30,819 bases of DNA from a virus (lineage: Duplodnaviria; Heunggongvirae; Uroviricota; Caudoviricetes), in IMG/VR virus record IMGVR_UViG_2740892433_000003. One strand, written 5' to 3'. A program made the translations under genes and the position numbers. Of the stretch, positions 4,406-27,469 are shown in pieces. Below the pieces are notes generated by a model, which worked only from the letters and a program-made list of their open reading frames with translations, did not search any database and was not told where the DNA came from. Numbering within the stretch: position 1 is the first letter of the stretch; each line of letters begins with the position of its first letter.

Positions 4406-4825
4406 TCGTGTTTCCGCTTCGCCGGAGCGCCTTTTCGCGCCATGTGATGAGTTCGGTCAGACTCATGGGATACAGTTCTGATGGCGGCCAGTGAAATATC
4501 ACTGCCACATCCGCCATCAGGTCATCGACCGAGAGATTTTTCGGGAACGTTACTGCACCGAGTTCGGCGACAAAAAACCGACCACCTTACCGGCCAGCGC
4601 CACAAGGTCAGGCAGTTCCAGCGCGGCAACTTCCTGTTCGGTCAGCATCGGTGCCGTCATGCGCGGCAGCACTTTAATCAGTGCATCGACTTCGGAGTTC
4701 GCGACCGCAGCCAGACTGACACCGCGCAGCGTCCCGGCATTGGGTTTCATTAGCGTGACCTGTTCGATGACCTGCTCACCACGCTTGACCGGATTGTCCA
4801 GGGTAATCACATTTTCTTTGTTCAT
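4398..4825 (-). CDS. E+E': gpE+E' tail assembly chaperone made by a programmed -1 ribosomal frameshift
   Basis: Slippery T TTT TTG at 4577..4571 (minus strand); the -1 frame then stays open for 58 codons (VAELGAVTFPKNLSVDDLMADVAVIFHWPPSELYPMSLTELITWREKALRRSGNTNE) to TAA at 4400..4398, overlapping the T start ATG (4405..4403). Predicted product ~143 aa against ~142 aa for P2 E+E'. Confidence 0.65.
4550..4825 (-). CDS. E: Tail assembly chaperone gpE
   Basis: 91 aa, P2 gpE length; C-terminus ...GKVVGFLSPNSVQ, with GGT TTT TTG containing the slippery heptamer. Confidence 0.9.
   Translation of the reverse strand: MNKENVITLDNPVKRGEQVIEQVTLMKPNAGTLRGVSLAAVANSEVDALIKVLPRMTAPMLTEQEVAALELPDLVALAGKVVGFLSPNSVQ
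4571..4577 (-). other. Programmed -1 frameshift slippery heptamer TTTTTTG (E to E+E')
   Basis: Plus strand reads caaaaaa, minus strand TTTTTTG, at the 3' end of E; the downstream -1 frame is open to the T start. Confidence 0.65.
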
Positions 4826-4881
4826 GGTTTTCTCACTTCTGAATCAGGGTTAACCGGTCAGCCTGGCTGACCGGATGAAAA

Positions 4882-5400
4882 TCACAGGCCGATATTGCGG
4901 CGGTGTTGCTCCAGCCGGTCGACGCCGTTCACCTTCTCAATCATGTTGATGGTGTCAATTTCGACCAGCTCCTTACCGTCCATCGTCAGCCGGAAATAGG
5001 TGCAGACCACGGAGATTTTCGACTCGGTATCTTCTCCCTGTTTCCCCTCGCCGGTGTCGATTTCTTTCTGACGTCCACGCATGACTACTTCGACGGCCAC
5101 CGTTTCGCCGGTATCGTCGCGCTGGTAAGAGCCAGCAAAACGAATCGGCACGGCATCCACGCCGGTTGCGGCGTAAAGCTCCCAGATAACCGAATCCGGG
5201 AAGCCCCCGAGCGACCACTCCATTGACAGCGCATCGTCATCAAGGCCGAGGTCTACCGGTGCGCTGCCGTTCATCCCCGCACCGCGATAGTTTTCGAGCT
5301 TACGGGTCAGTTTTGGCAGCGTGACGGACTTTGCAACGCCCTGATAGCTGTAGCCGTTCAGAAAGACGTTCATTAACTTGAGTTTGCGCGGCATTGCCAT
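4882..5400 (-). CDS. FII: Tail tube protein gpFII
   Basis: 172 aa, P2 FII length and position. Confidence 0.9.
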   Translation of the reverse strand: MAMPRKLKLMNVFLNGYSYQGVAKSVTLPKLTRKLENYRGAGMNGSAPVDLGLDDDALSMEWSLGGFPDSVIWELYAATGVDAVPIRFAGSYQRDDTGETVAVEVVMRGRQKEIDTGEGKQGEDTESKISVVCTYFRLTMDGKELVEIDTINMIEKVNGVDRLEQHRRNIGL

Positions 5401-5412
5401 CGGTCAGGCTCC

Positions 5413-6603
5413 TTAATTGCTGTTAACCGAGGTGACCAGATTTGCCAGGTATTTATCGGTAATACGCTGGCGCAGGGTCAGGTTTTCAAGAGGAGGCACC
5501 GGGGTATAGTCGTAGTCGATATACAGTTTTCCGGCCTTGAGGGTTTCCGCATCGTTGGATTCTTCGCTGAACCAGCAGGTCGCATCCACGATATAGCCGT
5601 TTGTTTTCAGCTCACGGAATTTGGCATTAATGCCGTCAACGATGTCGCGAATCAGCGTTGCGGTGATGGGCTTGTCCACCGCCCACATGTGCGCCTCAGC
5701 CATCGTGTCGGCCAGCACCTGCGCGGTGCGGGTGTAGTTTTCAAAGAGGAACAGCGGGTCATCAGAGCAGGTACGGTTACCCCAGAAGCGGAAACCGTCG
5801 CGGCGAATCAGCGTTGTGACACCAGACTCGTTAAGCAGGTCAGCATCGGTGCCGGACTCCTGCAAATCCCAGAAGACGGATGCGCTGATGCCGGTAACAC
5901 CGTTCACCCCGACATTGGACAGCGTTTTATGCCAGCCCTGCTCCTGGTCGATTTTAGCGCGCAGACCCAGCGCACGGGCGGTGGCATACGCGGTGGCGGT
6001 GGTACTGCTGACCGTATCCCATGCGAGGAAATCCGGCCAGATGACCATCAGCTCACGCTGGCTGAAATTCTGACGGTAGGCTTTCACCTCGGAAATGGTT
6101 TTACAGTCCCATGCGCTGATATACCCGAAAGCGCGCAGCTTCTGACAGACTGATGCCAGTGCAACAGCCACCTCTTTGGTGTCCAGTCCCGGCACACCGA
6201 GAATACGCGGTTTAACACCGGTTACCGACTCCGCCGCCAGCAGGGCTTTCAGTCCGGTGTACTGACCATTTTCGTCGGTGGTGCCGATGATATTGGAAAC
6301 GGTCTGCGCGAGTTTCGTTTCTTCGTCGTCGCCGGTGCCGTCTTCCACGCGCACAACAACGGTGACCGGTTTTGACTGGTCTGCGATGGCCTGTAACGAC
6401 GCCGCCAGCGTGCCTTTTTTACCGGCCTTTGCAATTGCGCTCTGCACATTGGTAATCAGCACCGGTTTATTGAGGGGGAAGGTTTCCGCATCCGCATCGC
6501 TGGCCGTGCAGACCATGCCGACAATGGCCGTGGATACGGTGGAAATGACGCGGGTGCCGTCGTTAATTTCCAGCACCTGCACGCCGTGATGATAGTCACT
6601 CAT
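5413..6603 (-). CDS. FI: Contractile tail sheath protein gpFI
   Basis: 396 aa, P2 FI length; GGAG RBS 8 nt upstream of the ATG at 6603..6601. Confidence 0.92.
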   Translation of the reverse strand: MSDYHHGVQVLEINDGTRVISTVSTAIVGMVCTASDADAETFPLNKPVLITNVQSAIAKAGKKGTLAASLQAIADQSKPVTVVVRVEDGTGDDEETKLAQTVSNIIGTTDENGQYTGLKALLAAESVTGVKPRILGVPGLDTKEVAVALASVCQKLRAFGYISAWDCKTISEVKAYRQNFSQRELMVIWPDFLAWDTVSSTTATAYATARALGLRAKIDQEQGWHKTLSNVGVNGVTGISASVFWDLQESGTDADLLNESGVTTLIRRDGFRFWGNRTCSDDPLFLFENYTRTAQVLADTMAEAHMWAVDKPITATLIRDIVDGINAKFRELKTNGYIVDATCWFSEESNDAETLKAGKLYIDYDYTPVPPLENLTLRQRITDKYLANLVTSVNSN

Positions 6604-6700
6604 CCGTTTAACTCCGTGGTTAATGGGTGCAACTATTTTCCGTTGGGTAGTGCATGAGACGCTATTTGACCTGGCTGGTCAGTGGATGAAACAACAGATA

Positions 6701-6725
6701 AAGAAAAAGCGGGCAATTCGCCCGC
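6701..6725 (-). terminator. Rho-independent terminator ending the G/cargo transcript before FI
   Basis: Perfect stem gcgggc(6709-6714)/gcccgc(6720-6725) with loop aattc; on the minus strand it is followed by UUUUUCUUUAUC (6708..6697). Confidence 0.6.
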
Positions 6726-6726
6726 C

Positions 6727-6744
6727 TGTCCTGATTTGTACACA
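6727..6744 (-). promoter_or_regulatory. Candidate Ogr-dependent late-promoter element (TGT-N12-ACA dyad) upstream of FI (putative P_F)
   Basis: Exact TGTcctgatttgtacACA (TGT 6727-6729, 12-nt spacer, ACA 6742-6744), ~130 nt upstream of the FI start. P2 late promoters carry a TGT-N12-ACA dyad near -55 (recalled). Position relative to the transcription start is not verified. Confidence 0.3.
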
Positions 6745-6932
6745 CTCATTTTCCGACTGACAATTTACATAACCCAAAAGTTATCAAATCTGACAGTCTG
6801 CTTTGATCAAGAAGCGGACATTTGCCTGTCAGGGTATATGCCGCTCTGCGGTTATTATCCAGAATCAATAATTCATCTGAGTTGGATTACATATAAAACA
6901 TAGTTATCCCATGAATAACCATTAGCAGATCA

Positions 6933-7526
6933 TCAATTATGTAAATCTTTTGTTTCAGGTTTTTTGAGGTGTTGTGACAACAAATGGCTATAGCGTTTAA
7001 GCAAAATATTAGAAAGATTAAACTCATTCATGAAGTGTTCTTCTAATAAGTAACCATCAATATCAACTTTAATATCATTATTGCTTTTCATCTTCTGTAA
7101 CGTAGATTTTACACACTCCAGCAGGATGCTTTGCTCATTGTAATAGTCCATAAGAAGAGTAACATCCTCTTTATCAAGTTTACTTAATTCACTGAAGTAG
7201 GCTTTAAACACTTTATCAGTCTGGTTTAATGCAACCTGTAAGCGAGGCCCTCCTAATGATTTGACATTAATGGCAAAAGGCTCGCCAACAAAATGCTCCG
7301 AATTTTCGTCAAAGCCAATATGTCTCGTTTTATCAAGAAAAGTGAGAGCGCGATGGTTATTAGCGATTTCATATGCAAACATTGTTCTGATACTGTCCCT
7401 CTCAGCCTCCATGCTTATATCATCACGGTGATTTGTGTAAAATATATTTCCAACAAAGAGAACCATAGCAAGAATCACTGAACTTGCCTCCCAGTTAATA
7501 TTTTTTAATCGTCGCTTAGTAAACAT
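6933..7526 (-). CDS. Hypothetical single-pass membrane protein (197 aa) in the Z/fun cargo position; candidate superinfection-exclusion or abortive-infection protein
   Basis: ATG at 7526..7524 with AAGGTG RBS 5 nt upstream; N-terminal basic segment MFTKRRLKNINWE followed by hydrophobic helix ASSVILAMVLFVGNIFY; AT-rich codon usage unlike flanking G and FI; sits exactly between G and FI. Confidence 0.75.
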   Translation of the reverse strand: MFTKRRLKNINWEASSVILAMVLFVGNIFYTNHRDDISMEAERDSIRTMFAYEIANNHRALTFLDKTRHIGFDENSEHFVGEPFAINVKSLGGPRLQVALNQTDKVFKAYFSELSKLDKEDVTLLMDYYNEQSILLECVKSTLQKMKSNNDIKVDIDGYLLEEHFMNEFNLSNILLKRYSHLLSQHLKKPETKDLHN

Positions 7527-7747
7527 ACCGCACCTTAATTATCAAAAATATTCCTTCAGTGTTATCTGGTTAGCCTAAACCAAGTCATTAAAGTCCGCAG
7601 GATATCATATACATAAAATGTATTGATTAGAATTTGCACTAATAAAATAATGCTTTACTAAAATCTACTCCAGACACAGAGCGGTCTGTCAGATTAGGCT
7701 TTACTCTGTGCTATAGATATGTAAGCTCACACCAGAGATCATACAAC

Positions 7748-8275
7748 TTATTGCGGCATTTCCGGCCATTCGGGATTTGCAGGATCCACACGACTGACCA
7801 GAACGCTGTAGCGTTCCCATGCTTCCAGTCGGCTGCGTTCCTCATCCGTCGCCATATTCAGCCTGACAGCGCGTTCCAGCGGAAAAATCACGGATTCAGC
7901 TTCGGAAAGTAAAGCTGCCTTTTGTGATTCTGCCTGTTGCTCCTGTTCATCTGCCGTATAAATCCGCTTAATCACGGCACCATCCTTAAACATCCATTTA
8001 CCTGAGTCATCAGCACGTCGGTTGGAGGTAATATCAGGAACCTCGACAACGCTGAAACCTTCAGGGTTAAGCGTTGAAGCATCTCTGGTGATGCCGACAA
8101 TTATATTATTCTCGTCGTAAACAATCTTTATCGTGTCTTCCTGAAAATTACTTACTTCCTCATACCAGTTTTTTCCCTCTTCGGACCATAACCAGATAAC
8201 ATCAAAATTTTTTGTCAGTTGATATTGGGCAACAGTTTTTGGATTACCCGCAGTAATATTTTTTAAATGCTGCAT
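7748..8275 (-). CDS. G: Tail fiber assembly protein gpG
   Basis: 175 aa, P2 gpG length, immediately downstream of H. Confidence 0.88.
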
Positions 8276-8278
8276 AAA

Positions 8279-10324
8279 TTACACCTGTGCGACGTTATAC
8301 CATGTGCCATTGATGTATTTTTGTATTGGCCTGAATACTGCGGGGTCATCACCATCGACTTCACCGACAATACCAAGCCCGGTAATTACGTGCCCTGCTT
8401 TCTCATACATCACCCCTTTCTGCATGGTCTGGACAACACGTGTGCCAAGTCTGATATCTCTCACATAGCGGGAATCAAAGTTACCGTAATCCGAGGGATT
8501 AACACGCCCCGTAATATTTATGGTCTTATTACTTTGAATGCTTCCGGAAACAAAGCGCATAACATGGACGTTATTAGCATAAACATCCAGATTACCATCG
8601 CCATTTTGTTTAAATCCGGTGTCGTTATCACCAAGAACAATAGAGTTCCCACCCAACGCGTTATTCGTGCCAAGTGCCAGCCCGCCATCAATCCTGGCAC
8701 CATTACCAACAGACACAACTCCTGTTCTTAAGTTGATGCCGAATGGCCTTAATGGCCCAATATCTCCATTTTCACCCTCATTTTCTCGTGTAGGGATGAT
8801 ATACAGGTTTTCTTCAGAACGGCGAAAAATAGCACCAAAAGATGAATTAAATATCCTCAGTGCATTGACTGTAGATATTTTTACTTCACTGCTGAAAAGG
8901 GCTTTAACAAGAACATACAGAGCATCCCATTTAAGATTCATCAGGTCTTTTGTTGTGGTGCTCTGGCGACTTCTCCATTTGAAGTATTCATTGCCGTTGT
9001 CACCTGTTTCAAACCACATATATGAATCAGTGTCACCATCGGCATCATTTTTAAATCCAATCTTCGCCCAGTCAGTATTTCGAATCCAGGCAAGGATTGA
9101 GTCGTTTTCAAAAGTAAGTCCACCGGACAAGGTATCGCCATTTTTTTGCACGGCGTTCCCGGCTCGGTTTACCGTTTCCTGTAAACCGAGATATTCGATA
9201 ACGGCGGAAACGGTCGATTTCGCAAGAATATCCCGCCCGACTTTTGTCAGAGTTGCCAGACTGGCAACATCATTCCCCGTAAAATACGGAAACCTGTCTG
9301 CCGCAGTAGCAAGCCCCGCCAGCGCCGTCAGGGTAGCATCTTTCGGTTGCTTACCCGCAAGCGCATTAGTCATAGTGGTAGCAAAATTCGGGTCGTTGCC
9401 CAGCGCCGCTGCCAGCTCGTTCAGCGTATTCAGTGCGTCAGGCGACGAGTCTACAAGGGCGGCAATCGCGGCCATAACGAAAGCCGTGTTTGCGATCTGA
9501 GTATTATTCGTTCCCTGTCGCGCAGTTGGCGTCGTTGGCGTTCCGGTCAGTGCAGGGCTGTTTAATGGCGCTTTCTTGTTCGTTTCATCCATTACCGTCT
9601 TAACGGCTTTTGGTGTTGCGGCCAGTGTTTCAGACGTGCTGTTGGTCGCACTGCTTAGCTGGACAAGACCTTTTCGCGCTGTGGTAGCGTCCTGTGCGGT
9701 ATATTTCCCGTTAGCAAGGTCATATGCGGCCTTAACCGCTTTCGGCGTTGCGGCCAGTGTTTCAGATATGCTGTTGGTCGCACTGCTTAACTGAGTAAAA
9801 CCTTTTGCGGTCAGCGAGGCGTCCGGGTGACGTCGTGACTGTTCGTGCTCTGCAATTTTGTCATCAACGTAATCCTGCGTCGCCATCACCGTTGTGGTGT
9901 CAATGGTCAGCTCCACTGAGGCCACACTGCTGACGATGATGACCATGCGACAGGTCTGCGAACGCCCTGAGCCTTCGGCAAGAGCGGGTTTATAACTTTC
10001 GGCCATGTTCGCCACGGCAATTAGCGTTCCCGCATCATCGTACAGGCCAAGCTCACGCATCCAGAAACCGCCCACCTCCGGCGGAATAACCAGCTCTGCG
10101 ATAATATAATTACTGTTTCGTTTGTCCTGGCTGATTTTATTCAGCGCATGTCGCCAGACTTTATGGATAAGCCCGGTCTGTCCGGCATCCGGGACAGGCA
10201 ATTTACCACCGCCATCCCCGACGGCCATCGTGGTAATGTTGACCTTCCGCCCTCCCGGCGTGGTTGCCGCTGCCAGCTTTGCTGCACCGGCAGTGGTGAT
10301 AACGGTTCTGAATTTTGTGCTCAT
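8279..10324 (-). CDS. H: Tail fiber protein gpH
   Basis: 681 aa; conserved N-terminal region MSTKFRTVITTAGAAKLAAA...; internal repeated motif LSSATNS(I/T)SETLAATPKAVK; C-terminal half more AT-rich (receptor-binding region). Confidence 0.9.
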   Translation of the reverse strand: MSTKFRTVITTAGAAKLAAATTPGGRKVNITTMAVGDGGGKLPVPDAGQTGLIHKVWRHALNKISQDKRNSNYIIAELVIPPEVGGFWMRELGLYDDAGTLIAVANMAESYKPALAEGSGRSQTCRMVIIVSSVASVELTIDTTTVMATQDYVDDKIAEHEQSRRHPDASLTAKGFTQLSSATNSISETLAATPKAVKAAYDLANGKYTAQDATTARKGLVQLSSATNSTSETLAATPKAVKTVMDETNKKAPLNSPALTGTPTTPTARQGTNNTQIANTAFVMAAIAALVDSSPDALNTLNELAAALGNDPNFATTMTNALAGKQPKDATLTALAGLATAADRFPYFTGNDVASLATLTKVGRDILAKSTVSAVIEYLGLQETVNRAGNAVQKNGDTLSGGLTFENDSILAWIRNTDWAKIGFKNDADGDTDSYMWFETGDNGNEYFKWRSRQSTTTKDLMNLKWDALYVLVKALFSSEVKISTVNALRIFNSSFGAIFRRSEENLYIIPTRENEGENGDIGPLRPFGINLRTGVVSVGNGARIDGGLALGTNNALGGNSIVLGDNDTGFKQNGDGNLDVYANNVHVMRFVSGSIQSNKTINITGRVNPSDYGNFDSRYVRDIRLGTRVVQTMQKGVMYEKAGHVITGLGIVGEVDGDDPAVFRPIQKYINGTWYNVAQV
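9599..9793. repeat. Two ~63-bp direct repeats (~90% identical, 132 bp apart) inside tail fiber gene H
   Basis: 9599-9661 cttaacggcttttggtgttgcggccagtgtttcagacgtgctgttggtcgcactgcttagctg against 9731-9793 cttaaccgctttcggcgttgcggccagtgtttcagatatgctgttggtcgcactgcttaactg; encodes the repeated peptide ...QLSSATNS(I/T)SETLAATPKAVK. Confidence 0.75.
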
Positions 10325-19190: not shown

Positions 19191-20963
19191 ATGACCATCA
19201 CCACAGACACCACTCTTTTACACGACCCGCGTCGTCAGGCGGCGCTGCTGTACTGGCAGGGGTTTTCCGTGCCGCAGATTGCCGCCATGTTGCAGATGAA
19301 ACGCCCGACGGTGCAGAGCTGGAAACAGCGCGACGGCTGGGACAGCGTTGCCCCCATCAGCCGTGTCGAAATGAGTCTGGAAGCGCGACTGACCCAGCTC
19401 ATCATCAAACCGCAGAAAACCGGCGGTGACTTCAAGGAAATTGACCTGCTCGGACGCCAGATTGAACGACTGGCACGGGTCAACCGCTACAGCCAGACCG
19501 GCAACGAGGCAGACCTTAATCCGAACGTCGCTAACCGCAACAAAGGCGGGCGGCGCAAACCGAAAAAGAATTTTTTCAGTGACGAGGCCATCGAAAAGCT
19601 GGAGCAGATTTTCTTTGAGCAGTCTTTCGAATATCAGTTGCACTGGTATCGCGCCGGGCTTGAGCACCGCATCCGCGATATCCTGAAATCCCGCCAGATT
19701 GGCGCGACGTTTTATTTTTCCCGCGAGGCGCTGCTGCGCGCCCTGAAAACCGGTCATAACCAGATTTTTCTGTCGGCCAGTAAAACGCAGGCGTATGTGT
19801 TCCGCGAATACATCATCGCCTTTGCCCGTCTGGTTGACGTTGACCTGACCGGTGACCCGATTGTCCTGGGCAATAACGGCGCAAAACTGATTTTTCTCGG
19901 CACCAACTCCAACACCGCACAGAGCCATAACGGCGACCTGTACGTCGACGAGATTTTCTGGATCCCGAATTTTCAGGTACTGCGTAAGGTGGCATCAGGT
20001 ATGGCCTCACAGAGTCACCTGCGTTCGACCTATTTCTCCACCCCGTCCACGCTGGCGCACGACGCCTACCCGTTCTGGTCAGGTGAACTGTTCAACCGGG
20101 GACGCGCCAGCGCCGCCGAACGCGTGGAAATCGACGTCAGTCATAACGCCCTTGCCGGAGGTCTTCTCTGTGCGGACGGCCAGTGGCGGCAGATTGTCAC
20201 CATTGAGGACGCCCTGAAAGGCGGCTGCACGCTGTTCGACATTGAGCAGCTCAAACGCGAAAACAGCGCCGACGATTTTAAAAACCTGTTCATGTGTGAA
20301 TTTGTTGACGACAAGGCATCGGTGTTCCCGTTCGAGGAGCTGCAACGCTGCATGGTCGACACGCTGGAAGAATGGGAAGACTATGCACCCTTTGCCGCCA
20401 ATCCGTTCGGCTCCCGCCCGGTATGGATTGGTTACGACCCGTCACACCGTGGCGACAGTGCCGGATGCGTGGTACTGGCACCGCCGGTGGTGGCCGGTGG
20501 CAAATTCAGAATACTTGAGCGTCACCAGTGGAAAGGCATGGACTTTGCCACCCAGGCTGAATCCATCCGCAAACTCACCGAAAAATATAACGTCGAATAC
20601 ATCGGTATTGATGCCACCGGCCTCGGTGTCGGCGTGTTCCAGCTCGTGCGCTCGTTCTATCCTGCCGCGCGCGATATCCGCTACACACCGGAAATGAAAA
20701 CCGCAATGGTGCTCAAGGCAAAAGACGTTATCCGCCGTGGCTGTCTGGAATATGACGTCAGCGCCACCGACATCACCAGCTCGTTTATGGCTATCCGCAA
20801 GACCATGACCAGCAGCGGACGCAGCGCCACCTATGAGGCCAGCCGCAGCGAGGAAGCCAGCCACGCCGACCTCGCCTGGGCGACCATGCACGCCCTGTTA
20901 AATGAGCCACTCACCGCCGGTATCAGCACCCCGCTGACATCCACCATTCTGGAGTTTTACTGA
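19191..20963 (+). CDS. P: Terminase large (ATPase) subunit gpP
   Basis: 590 aa from the ATG at 19191 (MTITTDTTLLHD...) with GAGGT RBS; the track ORF starts at a TTG at 19161; P2 gpP length. Confidence 0.9.
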   Translation: MTITTDTTLLHDPRRQAALLYWQGFSVPQIAAMLQMKRPTVQSWKQRDGWDSVAPISRVEMSLEARLTQLIIKPQKTGGDFKEIDLLGRQIERLARVNRYSQTGNEADLNPNVANRNKGGRRKPKKNFFSDEAIEKLEQIFFEQSFEYQLHWYRAGLEHRIRDILKSRQIGATFYFSREALLRALKTGHNQIFLSASKTQAYVFREYIIAFARLVDVDLTGDPIVLGNNGAKLIFLGTNSNTAQSHNGDLYVDEIFWIPNFQVLRKVASGMASQSHLRSTYFSTPSTLAHDAYPFWSGELFNRGRASAAERVEIDVSHNALAGGLLCADGQWRQIVTIEDALKGGCTLFDIEQLKRENSADDFKNLFMCEFVDDKASVFPFEELQRCMVDTLEEWEDYAPFAANPFGSRPVWIGYDPSHRGDSAGCVVLAPPVVAGGKFRILERHQWKGMDFATQAESIRKLTEKYNVEYIGIDATGLGVGVFQLVRSFYPAARDIRYTPEMKTAMVLKAKDVIRRGCLEYDVSATDITSSFMAIRKTMTSSGRSATYEASRSEEASHADLAWATMHALLNEPLTAGISTPLTSTILEFY

Positions 20964-21997
20964 TGAGCAAGAAAAAAGGGAAAACACCGCAACCTGCGGC
21001 AAAAAAAATGACCGCCAGCGCCCCGAAAATGGAGGCATTCACCTTTGGTGAGCCGGTGCCGGTACTCGACCGCCGTGACATTCTGGATTACGTCGAGTGC
21101 ATCAGTAACGGCAGATGGTATGAGCCACCGGTCAGCTTTACCGGTCTGGCAAAAAGTCTGCGTGCTGCCGTGCATCACAGCTCACCGATTTACGTTAAAC
21201 GCAATATTCTGGCCTCGACATTTATCCCGCATCCGTGGCTTTCGCAACAGGATTTCAGCCGCTTTGTGCTGGATTTTCTGGTGTTCGGTAATGCGTTTCT
21301 GGAAAAGCGTTACAGCACCACCGGTAAGGTCATCAGACTGGAAACCTCACCGGCAAAATATACCCGCCGTGGCGTGGAGGAGGATGTTTACTGGTGGGTG
21401 CCGTCCTTCAACGAGCCGACAGCCTTCACGCCCGGCTCCGTGTTTCACCTGCTGGAGCCGGATATCAATCAGGAGCTGTACGGCCTGCCGGAATATCTCA
21501 GCGCCCTTAATTCTGCCTGGCTGAATGAATCAGCCACACTGTTCCGCCGCAAGTATTACGAAAACGGCGCTCATGCCGGATACATCATGTACGTCACTGA
21601 TGCCGTACAGGATCGCAACGATATCGAAATGCTCCGCGAAAACATGGTGAAGTCGAAAGGCCGCAACAACTTTAAAAATCTGTTTCTCTATGCCCCACAG
21701 GGGAAAGCCGACGGCATCAAAATTATCCCGCTCAGTGAAGTGGCAACGAAGGACGATTTTTTTAATATCAAAAAAGCCAGCGCCGCTGACCTGCTGGACG
21801 CGCACCGCATCCCCTTTCAGTTGATGGGCGGCAAGCCGGAGAACGTCGGGTCGCTGGGTGATATTGAGAAAGTGGCAAAGGTCTTTGTCCGCAATGAGCT
21901 TATCCCGCTACAGGACAGGATCCGCGAGATAAACGGCTGGCTCGGCCAGGAGGTCATCCGCTTTAAAAACTACTCACTGGACACTGACAACGGCTGA
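20963..21997 (+). CDS. Q: Portal protein gpQ
   Basis: 344 aa, P2 gpQ length; ATG overlaps the P stop (TGATG) with GGAG upstream. Confidence 0.92.
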   Translation: MSKKKGKTPQPAAKKMTASAPKMEAFTFGEPVPVLDRRDILDYVECISNGRWYEPPVSFTGLAKSLRAAVHHSSPIYVKRNILASTFIPHPWLSQQDFSRFVLDFLVFGNAFLEKRYSTTGKVIRLETSPAKYTRRGVEEDVYWWVPSFNEPTAFTPGSVFHLLEPDINQELYGLPEYLSALNSAWLNESATLFRRKYYENGAHAGYIMYVTDAVQDRNDIEMLRENMVKSKGRNNFKNLFLYAPQGKADGIKIIPLSEVATKDDFFNIKKASAADLLDAHRIPFQLMGGKPENVGSLGDIEKVAKVFVRNELIPLQDRIREINGWLGQEVIRFKNYSLDTDNG

Positions 21998-22166: not shown

Positions 22167-22185
22167 GTGCTTTCCCCGCCTCGCC
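22167..22185 (-). other. cos: cos site: 19-nt cohesive-end sequence GGCGAGGCGGGGAAAGCAC (read on the minus strand)
   Basis: Plus strand gtgctttccccgcctcgcc is the reverse complement of the recalled P2 cohesive end; it lies between Q and the replication/cargo region, in the expected position and orientation. Confidence 0.65.
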
Positions 22186-22316: not shown

Positions 22317-24668
22317 TCAAAGTTCTGTGTATATTAGTTGTAACATATCTCGCGCGTAGCTTCTCATATCTTCATCAGTCCATTCACGGATAACGTGCAT
22401 AGGCTCATTTAGTTCAGTCCTAAAGCCATGAATTCTTCTGGCCGTGGCTGCGTCCAAAATACCATCATCAGCCAGTCGGCTAATACACACAGAAAAATCC
22501 GTTCTATCATTCAAGTTTCGTTCAGCCAGTTGTTTACGATAACGAGAACGGAATTCTGCTTCCAGATATGGCCTTAAAGATTGTATTATCGTTTTATCGG
22601 TATCTACACCATCTATAAAGCCAACAATCCTCTCATAGCACTTTTCATGGTCTGAAGCTATCAACTGCTCTACTTGTAGTGGTTCAAAATTAGAACCATT
22701 AGAACCTTGTTTGATCTGAAGGATTCTATCTAAGTTAAATTTTTTAGATGTCTTTGCTGCCATTCCTTTATAGTGTGTAGTAATAAACATCTGTTTTACA
22801 TTAGGCTGTAACTCATACAATCTCTGCAAAATACAAGATATTCTTTCCTCATCAAAACTTGTCACAGGATCATCCATAATCAAAATAGCTTTTGACTTCT
22901 CATCCTCAGAAAGTAAATATATTTTAGAAAGAAATATACATAGAGCTAAAGCCCGGCGATCTGATTCACTAAACAAACAATTAAGTTTGTTTTTTTCAAC
23001 TGACTTCCCATTAAATGAAACGTCAAGTTCATAAACAATTTTCGTACCTTGCCTGTTTATTTTTTTATTTATAGCGAACTTACTTGACCCAACAGAACAA
23101 AACAGAGAATTAATATGCTCAAAATATTTATTTAAAAATTCCTCCTGGCATTCTTCTAATGCCTTTTTATTCTCTTTATAGTTATTTTCTCTAACCTCTA
23201 TTTCTCTTTTTAAATCAAGATATTCTCGACAGGCTGGCTCAAGAGATAATCTTTTTTTATTAGCTTCCAATTCCCTAAGATCTTTATGATGGCTATCCAT
23301 CAATGCGTCTAATGCTGTGGCATTGACACTTTCTTTATACTTCACTAACTCATCATTGAGTTGCTGAATAATGCTATTATATGATTCTAATTCACCATAA
23401 ATTTCATTTTCAAATTGTAAAAGAGCCGAAAAGTCAAACTCCTTCATTTCATTGTATACAGCTAATTCTTTTTCATCATATATACGCTCCAGCGATTGCT
23501 GAGCCTCTAGCAGTTCTTGATTAAATTTTAATATATCATTTCTTGCCTGTTCATAAATACTGCTACATGAGGCAAGCAATCCTTTGTTATCTAATTCTTT
23601 TTTTATCTCCTCCTCTAAATACTGCGACAAAACACTAATATTATCCCCATGTATGCCATCAATTACATCTAGCGAGACAAATGAAAGGTTACTTCGTCTT
23701 ATCTCTTTTATTTCTTTTTTCATACTCTCAATGAAGCGTATAAATGACTCATCAAATGAATCTTTATAAGCATTAATCAGTTCTTTTGATTCTCCTGATA
23801 TATTTTGGCCGCAAAATGGACATATTTCTGAAACCATACTGAGGCCATTTGATGCCCATCCGTTAAAATGCTCATGAGCTTTTACTTTCTCTTTATGCCG
23901 TTCCAATATAGAAAGCGCATCATCATGAATTTTGGCCATCCCAGAAGAAAGACATTTGTTAACCCTAATGGAAATATCTTTCAATTTTGGCGTGCAGTTA
24001 ACTAAATCAAGTAATGGCCTAGCTTTAATATATTTTATGGATGCTTTTTTCTTCTCAATTTCTTGTATTAACTCAGTAACCCCGTTTATTTTTGACTCAA
24101 TAAAATCGAGATCTGTTATGACAGGTTCACTAATGGCATACTCATCAACATTAGTAATTTGATGTGATTGAATCAAACTCTTTTTATTTCTTAGCTCCCC
24201 CCTTAAACTTCTTAATTCTGAATTTTCCTTTTCCAATGCTTCAAAAGCAGCAACATTATCTTCACCCAAAATAAATGCAGTAACGCATTCAGAGTTTTCT
24301 CGATTAGATATCGTACCAGCCATTACATTTCTATGAACAAAACTCTGATCAAAGATATATAATTTGGAATCAGGTGGGGGTAATTCTAACCATTTATCTA
24401 CATTAAATTTAACAACTTTATTTAAATCACCCTCTGTGAATTGCAATTCAATCTTTGGAGTTACGTCCCCTTCCCCCTCCAGAATAGTCTTCCTGTTGAC
24501 AACTAATTCAGGAGAGTTCGTTGACAAGGAATAAAAGATGTCACAAAGAGTACTTTTACCATGTCTATTTTCACCGTAGATAACATTTATGTTATTAAAC
24601 TCATAAGAACGTGAATGAGCTCTAATATAGTTACCAACGCCCTCTATTGATTTAATCCTCTTTAACAT
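22317..24668 (-). CDS. Rad50-like split ABC ATPase (783 aa) with coiled-coil CPxC hook and C-terminal putative nuclease domain; RloC/PrrC-like candidate anti-phage effector in the tin/old cargo position
   Basis: ATG at 24668..24666 with AAGGA RBS; Walker A G32ENRHGKST40; Q-loop Q108 (IFDQSF); ~390-aa heptad-rich Lys/Glu segment with C283-P-F-C286 near its centre; signature-like S567ESDRRALAL; Walker B A594ILIMDD600; H-loop FITTH632; extra C-terminal domain 645-783 with R699-x3-E703, H747 and R750-x7-H758. Strongly AT-rich. No adjacent partner gene. Confidence 0.55.
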   Translation of the reverse strand: MLKRIKSIEGVGNYIRAHSRSYEFNNINVIYGENRHGKSTLCDIFYSLSTNSPELVVNRKTILEGEGDVTPKIELQFTEGDLNKVVKFNVDKWLELPPPDSKLYIFDQSFVHRNVMAGTISNRENSECVTAFILGEDNVAAFEALEKENSELRSLRGELRNKKSLIQSHQITNVDEYAISEPVITDLDFIESKINGVTELIQEIEKKKASIKYIKARPLLDLVNCTPKLKDISIRVNKCLSSGMAKIHDDALSILERHKEKVKAHEHFNGWASNGLSMVSEICPFCGQNISGESKELINAYKDSFDESFIRFIESMKKEIKEIRRSNLSFVSLDVIDGIHGDNISVLSQYLEEEIKKELDNKGLLASCSSIYEQARNDILKFNQELLEAQQSLERIYDEKELAVYNEMKEFDFSALLQFENEIYGELESYNSIIQQLNDELVKYKESVNATALDALMDSHHKDLRELEANKKRLSLEPACREYLDLKREIEVRENNYKENKKALEECQEEFLNKYFEHINSLFCSVGSSKFAINKKINRQGTKIVYELDVSFNGKSVEKNKLNCLFSESDRRALALCIFLSKIYLLSEDEKSKAILIMDDPVTSFDEERISCILQRLYELQPNVKQMFITTHYKGMAAKTSKKFNLDRILQIKQGSNGSNFEPLQVEQLIASDHEKCYERIVGFIDGVDTDKTIIQSLRPYLEAEFRSRYRKQLAERNLNDRTDFSVCISRLADDGILDAATARRIHGFRTELNEPMHVIREWTDEDMRSYARDMLQLIYTEL

Positions 24669-24936
24669 TCTTTTTCCTTAATTAATTGTTAAATGTCGCT
24701 TACGACCCACACAATAAATTTAAGGAAATCAATATAATGTACAACAACAAAACTCACAATACCTTACACGCTCGTTACCTACTGCGAATTTACGTTACAA
24801 CACTAATAATCAAGTTTGAAATTATAAAATTACCACATGGAATAGCCATACAGCAGAGGCACCTTTGAGCTATAGCTAAAATGTCTATTCTTCAAACAGC
24901 AAGTTTTCTCAATTTTTAACCACATTAATTTCTACA

Positions 24937-27204
24937 TCACATAAAATCTATCCACTCATCAGTAACTGGGTAAATAAATTTTTTCCCGTCATAATTTACT
25001 GTTGCGCCACGCGCCAGCGCCTCAAGCTCCCATCGCTGCGGCCTGATACCGTTCTGAGCAAGGTCAACGCGGATACGGGTAATTTGCATTCTTTCCGACC
25101 GGGTCAGTCTGGCCGATGGTGCAATTTCATGTGGTTTTAACGGGCTTCCGTTTCTTTGCTGACGGTTTGGCGTTCGCAGGTCGTGTTTTAATGCGCCCCT
25201 GAGCGCCCTCACGACCTCCGGTTCATTCCATTCAATAACACCGTCATCAACCAGATTAAGCACTGCTGCGGCGTGCTCAGAAGGTGTGGGAGCCGGTAAC
25301 GAAGTATCACCACCGGTGAGCTTTCCACAGTTATTGACAGGACTCCGAGGCGCGGCGATGCCGCTTTTTAAAGTCAAAGGCTCCACGACCGGAACTTTCG
25401 GCACAATGCGCCAGTCCGTCGTTCTGGTGATATGAATATGACGCGCGCCGAGATGCGGCGCGTAAATGCCGACCACTCTCTCGACTTCTTCCTCGTACTC
25501 GTTAACTTCATCCGACGGGCTACGGGCGACTCTGACAGTCTGGCAATCGCGCGGAACATTTGCCCCACCCTGCGCACTGATATACAACGCAAAATCGCCA
25601 CTGTCTGCGGCAGCGCGTGCAGCCTCGACGCGTTCGTCAAACTCATCAGCAATGCTGACGCCGCGAGGCAATTTGCGTAGTTCACGGTAAGCCCCCATTG
25701 TCGGCAGACCAACCGTTTTAAATTGCGGGATGCGCCACGTTGACGCCCATGCAGTAACAGCCGCGGCAGTATCTTTCAGAGGTCTGCCGGTATCGTTATC
25801 GAGCTGACCATCCAGTGCATAGCCGTCGATGTTTTTTGAGATGTATTTCGCGATATACCCCGCAGCACCGCCCCGATTAAGGTGTTTTGCCTGAAAACGG
25901 TTTCGCGCGGCTCCTCTTTCGTCGCCATCCTCTTTGAGCGCATAGCGACGCATGATTTCGATAATCTGGTTACGCTGGCGTGGATTACAAAAAAGCATCA
26001 TATGCCAGTGCGGCGTTCCGTCGTGGTGTGGCTCGACGACACGCAAACCGTAGACCTGTAAATCATTATCCTTGAATGCCGTGCGCATCAGGCTCCAGAT
26101 ACGGCAGAGATAACGCTGCGCATCCTTTGGATTAAATGCCTCATCGTTCCAGCCGTGATTAAGCTGAACGGTTTTACTTTCGCCTTTTCTGACCTGACGT
26201 GTCGGGTGATACTTTGACGGCGCGGTCAGCGTGATAAACATCCCCACATCACCCTCTGCGGCGGCGTAACGCTCAATACCGGCAATGGTGTTCATCAGCT
26301 CCATCCGGCGAATTTCAGGATTAGAAATACTGCCCATCACCTTACTGATAAGGTCGATGCGCTCGCCGGTTTCCTTGTTTTCAAGGTCACACGATTTAAG
26401 AAATTCCAGATTTGCCTGGCGGCGTGCACGCACATCACGAATGGCATGTTTACTGGCATAAGGAGAACGGTCTTTATTGACCTCCCCGACAGCAATCAGT
26501 AACGCCTCATGCCAGCGCATACGCTGGCCTTTAAGCTGATGAGTCCACCACTCATCGTTAAACAGGCGGGCAATGGCAGAATATGCCTGCCTCGTGGTCA
26601 TCTGTCCTTTACGGTATTTTTTCCAGTAGAGCGGGGAAATATTGAAAGCACGTGCAGCGCCAGCAACATGACCATAGAGGTGAGCCTGCGCCTCATCCGT
26701 AAACAGCGATTCTTTTTCGCCATGCGCATCCACCCAGGCATCGCAGAGTTCCTCATACATCATGAAAAGCTGCGATGAGATACGGGCGGCAAACTTTTTC
26801 AGCTCCTTATCATTCATCCCCGGCAGACGCGCATAATGGTCACGCTCTGCCAGAAACAGCAACGACGCGTCGGTGTTCATTTCATGGCGCTGATTCACGC
26901 GCTCAATGCGCGGCCATAAACGACGCTGAAAAGTGGATGTGAGGAAATAAAACCCGTGCACCGGGCTTTTATTGCGCCGGATGTAGTCATAGCGTGAAGT
27001 AAACAGCGAGCGCAAAAAGTAAGGCAGGCGGTTAATCGTGGATAAAACACCTTGCACCTGACGCATCTCGTCACGTGTAAGGGGTCTTTCGCGCCCGACG
27101 GCCTCGCGTGGCGCGTTCCATGCATAAGCACCGGTAAACGCCTTACCGGTGCCTGCAGCAAATGCTGACGGAGGGACAAAACGCCCGGAGGCTTTAACGG
27201 CCAT
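24937..27204 (-). CDS. A: Replication initiation protein gpA (rolling-circle initiator)
   Basis: ~755 aa from the ATG at 27204..27202 (MAVKASGRFVPP...), overlapping the upstream ORF stop by 11 nt; the track ORF begins at a TTG at 27246; P2 gpA size and position. Confidence 0.9.
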   Translation of the reverse strand: MAVKASGRFVPPSAFAAGTGKAFTGAYAWNAPREAVGRERPLTRDEMRQVQGVLSTINRLPYFLRSLFTSRYDYIRRNKSPVHGFYFLTSTFQRRLWPRIERVNQRHEMNTDASLLFLAERDHYARLPGMNDKELKKFAARISSQLFMMYEELCDAWVDAHGEKESLFTDEAQAHLYGHVAGAARAFNISPLYWKKYRKGQMTTRQAYSAIARLFNDEWWTHQLKGQRMRWHEALLIAVGEVNKDRSPYASKHAIRDVRARRQANLEFLKSCDLENKETGERIDLISKVMGSISNPEIRRMELMNTIAGIERYAAAEGDVGMFITLTAPSKYHPTRQVRKGESKTVQLNHGWNDEAFNPKDAQRYLCRIWSLMRTAFKDNDLQVYGLRVVEPHHDGTPHWHMMLFCNPRQRNQIIEIMRRYALKEDGDERGAARNRFQAKHLNRGGAAGYIAKYISKNIDGYALDGQLDNDTGRPLKDTAAAVTAWASTWRIPQFKTVGLPTMGAYRELRKLPRGVSIADEFDERVEAARAAADSGDFALYISAQGGANVPRDCQTVRVARSPSDEVNEYEEEVERVVGIYAPHLGARHIHITRTTDWRIVPKVPVVEPLTLKSGIAAPRSPVNNCGKLTGGDTSLPAPTPSEHAAAVLNLVDDGVIEWNEPEVVRALRGALKHDLRTPNRQQRNGSPLKPHEIAPSARLTRSERMQITRIRVDLAQNGIRPQRWELEALARGATVNYDGKKFIYPVTDEWIDFM

Positions 27205-27469
27205 ATGAGCCAAAAGCCTCTGAACAACGCCTGCTGAGTTGCTCAACCTGCGCGTTTAAATCAGCAAAAGACTTTGCGCTTCCGGTCAGAATATCGTGAT
27301 GCATCAGGCCGGAAACGAGCTGGCTTAATTTCGGGTAATAACCAACCACCGCCAGCCATTCCTGACCGGCGTTTTTACCGCTTTCCGCTCTCTTTTTCTC
27401 GTGGAGAATAAACTGAAAGCTGTCACTGGTAACGACATAACGTTCGCCAATTTCAATACGAATACTCAT
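27194..27469 (-). CDS. Hypothetical protein (91 aa), early operon, P2 orf83 position
   Basis: ATG at 27469..27467; translationally coupled to A; position matches the small ORFs between B and A in P2. Confidence 0.7.
   Translation of the reverse strand: MSIRIEIGERYVVTSDSFQFILHEKKRAESGKNAGQEWLAVVGYYPKLSQLVSGLMHHDILTGSAKSFADLNAQVEQLSRRCSEAFGSYGR

Follow-up and report, generated by a model that had tools for sequence, protein, structure and literature searches.

RloC proteins and related ATPase-nuclease systems

RloC is described as a wobble-nucleotide-excising, zinc-responsive anticodon nuclease, the cue of which is linear DNA or double-strand breaks (PMC2610378, PMC3458546, PMC3874168). GkaRloC from Geobacillus kaustophilus and AbaRloC from Acinetobacter baylyi are single polypeptides of 804 aa and 826 aa, respectively, and the hooks of canonical RloC proteins read C-x-F-C-G/Q. 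In the canonical proteins, two successive cuts excise the tRNA wobble nucleotide, with tRNA-Glu, -Gln or -Lys as targets for GkaRloC and AbaRloC; a DNA-dependent ATPase activates the nuclease, and hook mutations relieve its repression. The 2008 RloC paper names an orthologue from E. coli with phage replication and capsid genes on its flanks, and in Rousset 2022 'RloC-like' ranks fifth among the systems of the P2 hotspot. PrrC, from the E. coli prr locus, is likewise a translation-disabling abortive defence in which an ABC-ATPase N-domain regulates a C-terminal HEPN anticodon nuclease (triad R320/E324/H356). P2 Old, Gabija GajA and PARIS AriA/AriB also couple an ABC-ATPase sensor to a nuclease, of TOPRIM type in these systems, with Old occupying the same gpA-gpQ slot in P2. 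Lamassu LmuB, SbcC and Rad50 combine a head, an antiparallel arm and a CxxC apex with separate nuclease subunits acting on DNA (LmuA, SbcD and Mre11), and proteins with an ABC ATPase and a classical HEPN domain (ERFG_01251-type) form a separate group (Anantharaman 2013).

The window analysed here, the whole 30,819-nt stretch of DNA from a Caudoviricetes record (IMGVR_UViG_2740892433_000003), contains on its minus strand an ATG-initiated gene (22317..24668) coding for a 783-aa RloC-like protein with ABC-ATPase, zinc-hook and HEPN regions, delimited from the ORF and from PADLOC, Pfam and RefSeq data. Its RefSeq entry, WP_001535223.1, is labelled 'AAA family ATPase', and the main value of the analysis lies in a corrected annotation, in which this label can be replaced by that of a candidate RloC-type abortive-infection protein directed at translation. 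We estimate at roughly 70% the probability that the gene is prophage-borne defence cargo coding for a single-polypeptide RloC-type abortive-infection RNase, in a known swap-in slot for anti-phage genes of an E. coli P2-like prophage. The protein is of a known kind, RloC-like P2 cargo being already catalogued; the novelty is modest and consists, as judged by sequence comparison, in a deep sub-clade with a remodelled nuclease domain.

The gpA-gpQ slot and its cargo

The gene is bordered on the left by the replication gene A (24937..27204, minus strand; Pfam Phage_GPA, E 6.5e-123; RefSeq 'replication endonuclease') and on the right by the portal gene Q (20963..21997, plus strand; Pfam Phage_portal; RefSeq 'phage portal protein'). 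Its GC content stays at 31-34% along its length, compared to 51-60% in the flanks (~33% vs ~55%). The 19-nt sequence GGCGAGGCGGGGAAAGCAC at 22167..22185 (minus strand), which we take to be the P2 cohesive end, was found as a single exact match with 0 expected by chance, 132 bp from the stop codon, and putatively marks the cos-proximal hotspot. The flanks were common to 2155 genomes and the RloC-like gene was present in 23 (23/5426 genomes); this variable gene lies between gpA and gpQ and adjoins the putative cos, in line with cargo of the P2 hotspot (Rousset 2022). The initial annotation, which placed a lone AT-rich gene between cos and gene A in the cargo slot of P2-like phages, is borne out in both respects.

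The ORF list of the window showed no second credible ORF in the slot between gpA and gpQ. Homologues in other bacteria are also single genes, in mobile or accessory contexts next to integrases, Fic and Bro-N genes and polyvalent proteins, and no conserved partner gene was present in any locus context examined, at the locus itself or around the homologues, in agreement with the self-contained module proposed earlier. A promoter-like site TTGTGA-17-TATATT (24731..24759, minus strand), found by a consensus scan 63-91 bp upstream of the ATG, is weak evidence, the scan being uninformative with 8 such sites in the region vs 10.7 expected from shuffles. Terminator-like sites were more numerous than expected (7 vs 1.9), and one such hairpin directly downstream of gene A (24831..24855, minus strand) is consistent with the cargo gene forming its own transcription unit.

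RloC-like proteins belong to the most frequent cargo of the P2 hotspot, and DefenseFinder and PADLOC class them with the 'defence systems'. The protein might instead be not chiefly anti-phage, acting as a toxin that stabilises the prophage or responds to DNA damage and stops translation upon double-strand breaks in the lysogen, with a benefit to the prophage such as an addiction module or modulated induction. AbaRloC is indeed activated by inducers of double-strand breaks in its native host with no phage needed, and part of the P2-hotspot cargo is non-defensive, e.g. partition systems and cytolethal distending toxin. In the literature searched, neither phage-protection data for any RloC nor a direct phage-challenge assay of this clade or of any RloC-like protein was found, a gap behind the defence label that the present locus exposes. 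We nevertheless regard this role as unlikely, as validated defence systems are strongly over-represented in the slot, the neighbours of the homologues are typical of defence or mobile contexts, the PADLOC family was itself derived as a candidate for defence and HEPN-ATPase fusions are recurrent abortive-infection effectors.

Rad50-like head, helical arms and hook

The architecture is that of a Rad50/SMC-like head split by a long helical arm with an invariant apical CPFC motif and followed by a HEPN-fold domain. Conservation was counted over 134 diverse aligned relatives, and all of the motif positions given by the initial annotation (GENRHGKST 32-40, CPFC 283-286, SESDRRALAL, AILIMDD, H632, R699, E703, H747, R750 and H758) were confirmed, with a conservation that speaks against chance occurrence of the motifs. 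The N-terminal half of the ABC-ATPase head (aa 1-122; 24303..24668, minus strand), delimited by motif, conservation and AF2 model, is beta-rich with a pLDDT of about 90 in the model and carries the Walker A motif GENRHGKST (aa 32-40; 24549-24575, minus strand), with K38 and N34 conserved in 134/134 relatives and G37 in 133. The C-terminal half (aa 526-665; 22674..23093, minus strand), recognised from motifs, conservation and profile matches to the signature/Walker B regions of RecF and Rad50 among PDB sequences, contains the signature SESDRRALAL (567-576), the Walker B motif AILIMDD (594-600) and the H-loop H632, then a beta-hairpin (648-665). Residues D599, D600 and H632 were found in all 134 relatives, Q626 in 133 and S567 in 131. 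The Walker A lysine, signature, Walker B aspartate and H-loop histidine that define an ABC head are thus 98-100% conserved, and the split ATPase read earlier from the sequence stands except for its Q-loop, since Q108 is a glutamine in only 10 of the 134 relatives.

The two halves are separated by a helical insert of ~400 aa. In the AF2 model, the ascending arm (aa 123-273; 23850..24302, minus strand) is made of helices 123-167, 187-216 and 229-273 and is the least conserved part in the family (about 19%), and the descending arm (aa 293-525; 23094..23792, minus strand) has a pLDDT mostly of 86-94; confidence is low for residues 273-280, where the hook has its apex. These predicted long helices agree with the coiled coil of ~390 residues proposed initially, and Foldseek returned Rad50, SMC, LmuB and JetC heads with coiled coils. 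The apical CX2C motif, CPFC (aa 283-286; 23811..23822, minus strand), lies inside an invariant block, W271...G275...CPFCGQ, and was identified by conservation and alignment: C283 and C286 are present in 134/134 relatives, F285 and Q288 in 119/134 each, and the motif aligns with CPFC of the ENT4 protein and CPYC of the Javan105 RloC. The earlier comparison with the Rad50 zinc hook is thereby supported.

Head and arm form a chassis, detected by Foldseek and PADLOC, that is shared with LmuB, SbcC and Rad50, but the effector is here fused to it and of RNase-type fold. Lamassu was rejected, the LmuB match being partial (E 4.9e-19; head and arm only) at single-gene loci without LmuA or LmuC. OLD, GajA and PARIS were also rejected: Pfam, PADLOC and NCBIfam gave no TOPRIM or DUF4435 match, the C-terminal domain is an all-helical HEPN domain and there is no partner gene; the PADLOC AriA matches were weak (E 4.5e-7) and limited to the shared ATPase motifs. 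The initial annotation had named a TOPRIM domain as the mark of the Old family, and the HMM searches gave no such placement. Cleavage of tRNA is reported for AriB, and OLD is an abortive tRNase according to a 2026 preprint; therefore the biological outcome of these systems and of the 783-aa protein is, by analogy, probably alike. PrrC differs in its size of about 400 aa without a coiled-coil or hook insert, in always lying within a type Ic hsd locus, by which it is silenced, and in its trigger, the T4 Stp peptide; identity with PrrC was rejected for a 783-aa protein with a 400-aa insert, with gpA and gpQ and no hsd as neighbours, and with no PADLOC PrrC match. DARNA (PD-T7-3), a DNA-activated tRNA-cleaving HEPN protein, was rejected because it carries HEPN at the N-terminus and lacks both an ABC ATPase and a hook.

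Family position and the C-terminal HEPN domain

The whole protein (residues 1-783) matched positions 1-780 of 784 of PDLC04895, a model of PDC-S06, the dedicated PADLOC candidate for such proteins, with an E-value of 4.9e-157, and Pfam AAA_13, which like the COG 'wobble nucleotide-excising tRNase' stands for the RloC-like ABC-HEPN family, was matched at E 3e-34 (119 bits vs a cutoff of 36). Together with the hook and the catalytic triad in register with the canonical clade, these matches support the RloC-type reading made initially. The domains common with RloC are the Rad50-like head, the C-x-F-C-G/Q hook and a C-terminal HEPN-type Arg-x3-Glu...His domain, in a standalone gene without R-M linkage, and the landmarks are nearly collinear: K38 with K44, the hook cysteines 283/286 with C291, D599 with D572, R699/E703 with R692/E696, and H758 with position 737. 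The link of the clade to the characterised GkaRloC, AbaRloC and PrrC runs through intermediate sequences, and among the 287 relatives retrieved no sequence shows the landmarks of GkaRloC (K44/C291/D572/R692/E696/H737) at their positions.

The canonical 'RloC-like' P2 cargo (system #5 in Table S5B of Rousset 2022; YP_852004/APECO1_4465 of APEC O1; the 742-aa ENT4 protein) has in common with the 783-aa protein the gpA-gpQ slot beside cos, the single gene, the domain order, the CPFC hook, the R-x3-E...N-x3-H motifs in register and the assignment to PDC-S06, in sub-models 04886/04890 instead of PDLC04895. Identity between the two is only 22-27%, confined to head and hook, and the 783-aa protein exceeds the canonical one by about 40 aa and is rarer (23/5426 genomes vs 420 occurrences of system #5 among 18,150 P2 loci). 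Its exact sequence and accession were not found in the rows of the Rousset 2022 tables searched or elsewhere in the literature searched, and tblastn found no counterpart of it in 50,697 phage records; at the 50% identity level, the clade has no fewer than 150 representatives. In the canonical clade, the match covers the whole of AAA_13 (about 370 bits; positions 10-713 for the ENT4 and Javan105 proteins) and the PADLOC PrrC model is hit as well (E 2e-14 for ENT4), whereas the match of the 783-aa protein to AAA_13 stops at position 576 and the PrrC model gave none, so that its nuclease domain is seen neither by AAA_13 ~577-713 nor by PrrC. One family member, P0049, does reach AAA_13 position 705.

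The C-terminal domain (aa 666-783; 22320..22673, minus strand) is all-helical with a predicted HEPN fold and contains the motifs R699-x3-E703 (22560-22574, minus strand) and R750-x3-N754-x3-H758 (22395-22421, minus strand). R699 is conserved in 134/134 relatives, H758 in 133/134, E703 in 124/134 (93%) and N754 in 84%. R699 and E703 were thus rightly picked out as catalytic in the initial annotation, and H747 wrongly: it is a histidine in only about half of the relatives, and for this reason the triad histidine is, on conservation grounds, assigned to H758. The triad R699/E703/H758 is in register with R646/E650/H690 of the canonical RloC-like clade (95%, E 8e-9); with the helical part alone the figure is 67-74%, a moderate similarity for HEPN only. 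A Lamassu-like or SMC-like DNA sensor with a non-catalytic, RNA- or protein-binding C-terminal HEPN domain, as in MtlR, and an unlinked effector is very improbable, as the catalytic positions are conserved, no conserved partner gene occurs in the contexts examined and the LmuB similarity is limited to the shared SMC-like head and arm.

The triad deviates from the published RloC pattern by a Glu-His spacing of 54 instead of 36-52, by R-x7-H instead of R-x6-H and by the lack of Ser before the His. The domain alone matched no Pfam family, its profile found nothing meaningful among PDB sequences, and the nearest solved folds were MNT-associated HEPN toxins, at non-significant Foldseek E-values and with no PrrC or RloC structure among the PDB matches. 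Sub-threshold matches to DUF4145, a different HEPN family, were found in 9/21 C-terminal domains of the family, over the R...N...H helices. From these comparisons the nuclease domain appears as the most diverged part of the protein, and for that reason its exact RNA target is uncertain. The same chassis might carry another effector specificity, a hook-controlled, DUF4145-like HEPN RNase cutting mRNA, rRNA, other tRNA sites or tRNA without wobble excision, and the protein could then match the ABC plus classical-HEPN (ERFG_01251-type) group that the HEPN paper sets apart and not RloC proper. The escape from canonical RloC/PrrC models, the DUF4145 matches, the MNT-type folds and the R-x7-H motif without Ser-His point in that direction, and the profile aligns to the canonical RloC-like domain with the triad in register; we hold the other specificity to be rather improbable. 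Tentative, and less likely than not, is the broader proposal that the ~780-aa clade forms a lineage of its own in function, made up of hooked Rad50-like RNases with a remodelled HEPN domain (R-x7-H, DUF4145-like, longer spacing) and another RNA target or cut. Within that proposal, a P2-borne copy would have to ignore the cos ends of P2 itself and its gpA-nicked rolling-circle DNA, and therefore the trigger would be narrower than 'any linear DNA end'.

For the favoured RloC-type abortive-infection RNase, a sequence of events can be proposed by analogy with the G. kaustophilus and A. baylyi proteins (PMC2610378, PMC3458546, PMC3874168). The protein would be present at low level in the lysogen with its RNase silent, zinc bound by the hook cysteines keeping the arms in their silencing conformation. 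Upon contact of the head with a DNA cue associated with infection, ATP hydrolysis would switch on the HEPN domain, which may then cut host tRNA anticodon loops, so that translation would stop and the superinfecting phage would be aborted. As a clonable single gene with mutational targets K38, C283/C286 and R699/E703/H758, the diverged clade is a convenient test case, through which one can approach the gating of an RNase by a Rad50-like DNA sensor and the means by which a prophage copy escapes triggering by the DNA ends of its own phage. The prophage carriers include clinical E. coli lineages, among them O25:H4.

Gene, slot and distribution

The initial annotation had placed one AT-rich gene between cos and gene A, and this was borne out. 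The ORF is located on the minus strand at 22317-24668, with an ATG start and a product of 783 aa, and coincides with a compositional island having a GC content of 0.31-0.34 (22501 to 25000) compared to 0.51-0.60 on both sides. Its neighbours are the replication protein (P2 gene A; Pfam Phage_GPA, E 6.5e-123) and the portal protein (gene Q), assigned on a Pfam/RefSeq basis. A cos-like sequence of 19 nt, which we take to be the P2 cohesive end, occurs once, at 22167-22185, 132 bp past the stop codon. An ORF scan of the gene A to cos interval gave no further credible ORF. The start of gene A is ambiguous, the ORF call beginning at a TTG at 27246 (769 aa, window 24937-27246) and the RefSeq annotation at 27204 (755 aa). 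The same gene order is annotated by RefSeq in E. coli O25:H4 strain 18044, within a complete P2-like prophage whose integration site adjoins pflA.

The gene A and cos ends of a 3-kb query matched 2155 of the 5426 complete E. coli genomes, whereas the gene itself was present in only 23 of them, a distribution expected of hotspot cargo and not of phage machinery. The carriers fell into two alleles, one at 99-100% identity (11 records) and one at about 86% (12 records). Overall, the window protein shares 83% identity with P0002, a retrieved relative representing the other allele found in this P2 slot. This identity is uneven (93% in the C-terminal head half, 85% in the HEPN domain, 79% in the hook block and 75% in the descending arm), so that the arms and apex are diverging fastest. 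Many RefSeq E. coli chromosomes have the gene at record positions 2535-4888 (hits H2, H6, H8-H13, H15 and others); coordinate 1 is therefore the start codon of the prophage gene A (window 27204). It looks as if an assembly-rotation tool took P2 gpA to be the replication-initiator gene of a chromosome or plasmid.

Conservation and predicted fold

A first homology search yielded about 50 full-length relatives (27-42% identity) from Shewanella, Alteromonas, Acinetobacter, Zhongshania, Pseudomonas and metagenomes, several of them named 'wobble nucleotide-excising tRNase' by JGI. The family is much larger than this search indicated, as an exhaustive profile search gave 9957 matches with E<=1e-3, of which 1791 reached E<=1e-30. 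Of the 150 best representatives, taken from clusters at 50% identity, most were about 780 aa long and aligned end to end, and a minority were truncated or fragmentary. All motifs listed in the initial annotation were found at their residues by a motif position check, and conservation was counted after aligning 134 of the 150 representatives. K38, C283, C286, D599, D600, H632 and R699 were invariant. H758 was kept in 133/134, W271 in 132/134, G275 in 131/134, E703 in 124/134 (Gln replacing it in 7), N754 in 112/134 and R750 in 97/134. Two of the proposed roles were not upheld: the residue taken as the Q-loop, Q108, is Gln in only 10/134 relatives and is thus not a conserved Q-loop, and H747, taken as the triad histidine, is His in about half of the 134, so that H758 is the histidine that matters.

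In the AlphaFold2 model computed with the family alignment (mean pLDDT 84.5), residues 1-122 and 526-665 together build a beta-rich head. The helical arms expected from the sequence were recovered as long helices, 123-273 and 293-525, flanking CPFC; the hook apex next to this motif (273-280) was of low confidence. Foldseek comparison of the model with the PDB returned Rad50 from MRN complexes and the coiled-coil-bearing heads of SMC, cohesin and condensin, with further matches to Lamassu LmuB, JetC and MukB. Within the family, identity to the query was lowest in the arms (about 19%) and highest in the hook block (41%).

Relationship to RloC

In the definition of Davidov and Kaufmann, RloC combines ABC-ATPase motifs of the PrrC kind with a coiled-coil insert bearing a CX2C zinc hook and, near the C terminus, an Arg-X3-Glu-X36-52-His triad; of this triad they state that 'Ser often precedes His'. 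The landmarks of Geobacillus kaustophilus RloC (GkaRloC), K44, C291, D572 and R692/E696/H737, were all validated by mutagenesis, and the window protein is near-collinear with it (K38, C283/C286, D599 and R699/E703/H758). The canonical hooks in the 2008 RloC supplement, C-x-F-C-G/Q, resemble CPFCGQ of the window protein. The GkaRloC landmark positions were found in none of the retrieved sequences. The comparison was anchored on proteins that others had named RloC: the 'RloC-like' P2-hotspot system #5 of Rousset et al., whose printed 399 aa are 100% identical to P0253, a relative from the canonical clade; the Enterobacter phage ENT4 protein, 47% identical to the system #5 protein and occupying, as the window gene does, the Q-gene A interval; and a Streptococcus prophage protein (Javan105) annotated 'translation-disabling ACNase RloC'. 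These anchors cover the whole Pfam AAA_13 profile (positions 10-713, about 370 bits), and the ENT4 protein matches the PADLOC PrrC model through the nuclease domain (E 2e-14).

Several observations are contrary to RloC. The AAA_13 match of the window protein (119 bits) ends at profile position 576, the PADLOC model search gave no PrrC match for it, and it shares 22-27% identity with the canonical clade, limited to the head and hook. Glu and His are separated by 54 residues, the position preceding His is not occupied by Ser, and the distance from Arg to His (R750...H758) is 7 versus 6 in canonical proteins. Moreover, DUF4145, another HEPN family, gave sub-threshold matches in 9/21 C-terminal domains (best E 4.8e-5; 14-17 bits in those members inspected, against a cutoff of 23.1), spanning the helices that carry the R...N...H motif. 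These matches hint that the HEPN module of this clade resembles DUF4145-type HEPN more closely in sequence than the canonical RloC module does.

The family profile aligned to the ENT4 and Javan105 anchors at 98.6% (E 9e-16) and 99.1% (E 1.7e-18). The hooks fell in register, and in the ENT4 alignment LRPYLE was placed onto MRNILE. The region after the H-loop only, compared profile to profile, gave 95% (E 8e-9) over 120 columns, with R699-R646, E703-E650, N754-N686 and H758-H690 in register. Because this region includes a conserved beta-hairpin, the helical part was retested alone and gave 67-74% (E 7e-6 to 3e-5) in the same register, compared to 2% (E 0.024) for a reversed-template control. P0049, another family member, aligns to AAA_13 up to position 705 of 713. 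The RloC-type reading is supported, with residue-level corrections, and we place the window protein within the RloC-like ABC-HEPN family as a genuine member, in a deep sub-clade whose nuclease domain is the most diverged part. Membership of the canonical RloC clade was rejected on the low identity, the partial AAA_13 match and the missing PrrC match. PrrC, OLD/Gabija/PARIS and Lamassu were also rejected for this protein.

Earlier records, proposed mechanism and neighbouring elements

The gene is a known kind of element, already catalogued as candidate defence. An orthologue from E. coli APEC O1 (YP_852004, 738 aa, with the hook) was tabulated in the 2008 RloC paper (Table S1), its flanks given as 'Phage replication initiation, Capsid', and the 2013 HEPN survey put PrrC/RloC/APECO1_4465 in one group, APECO1_4465 being found in prophages. 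In Rousset et al. 2022, the gpA-gpQ hotspot is defined and the AAA_13 'RloC-like' system ranks fifth in frequency (420 occurrences) but is not among the systems tested there. The PADLOC sub-model for candidate PDC-S06 matches the window protein end to end, and a 2025 preprint considers an E. coli PDC-S06 ATPase probably a true defence protein. What is new is limited to the diverged sub-clade; the literature searched contained no phage-challenge data for PDC-S06 or any RloC.

Beyond the architecture, conservation and context observed here, a mechanism may be proposed by analogy with characterised RloCs, in which ATP hydrolysis by the DNA-dependent ATPase is needed to switch on an otherwise silent nuclease, mutation of the hook uncouples the nuclease and relieves its repression, and DSB inducers activate anticodon-loop cuts in tRNA-Glu/tRNA-Gln in vivo (PMC2610378, PMC3458546, PMC3874168). 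The window protein would follow the same logic, the prophage using it to abort superinfection, in line with what Anantharaman et al. proposed for ABC-HEPN proteins carried by prophages. Of the steps in this scheme, the RNA target is the least certain.

The Acinetobacter homolog lies directly after a phage integrase and close to a 3127-aa polyvalent protein, the Pseudomonas indica homolog adjoins YhfG/Fic and Bro-N genes, and the Zhongshania homolog is an isolated insertion amid housekeeping genes. No partner gene is conserved across these contexts, so the system is self-contained. The Acinetobacter sp. SFA locus (LSZI01000012.1, L004 13745-18349) comprises a phage-type integrase, the RloC-like homolog, six small unannotated genes and then the polyvalent protein, which carries InPase, ddrB-ParB, ART-PolyVal and LPD domains. 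It looks like an integrative element with the RloC-like protein as its first cargo gene.

A second low-GC island (0.36-0.43) was found at window 6500-9000, between the tail sheath and tail-fibre assembly genes, the position of P2's other variable locus (Z/fun). Its ORF at 6933..7526 (minus strand, 197 aa, RefSeq 'hypothetical protein' WP_032157885.1) had no Pfam or PADLOC match and may be an uncharacterised cargo gene of this second hotspot. In the otherwise identical prophage of strain 18044, terminase gene P and portal gene Q are separated by a copy of ISEc12, an IS21-family element with istA/istB (L001, the strain 18044 locus in NZ_AP022326.1, 14467-16769). The equivalent P/Q junction of the window, near 20963, lacks the insertion, and the window therefore comes from another strain. 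About 7 kb past the prophage integrase of strain 18044, beyond pflA, ycaD, ycaC and dmsABC, a second integrase is accompanied by HTH and Cox-family genes and by a number of small DUF genes (L001 34107-39001); this is another P2-family or satellite-like element in the same genome.
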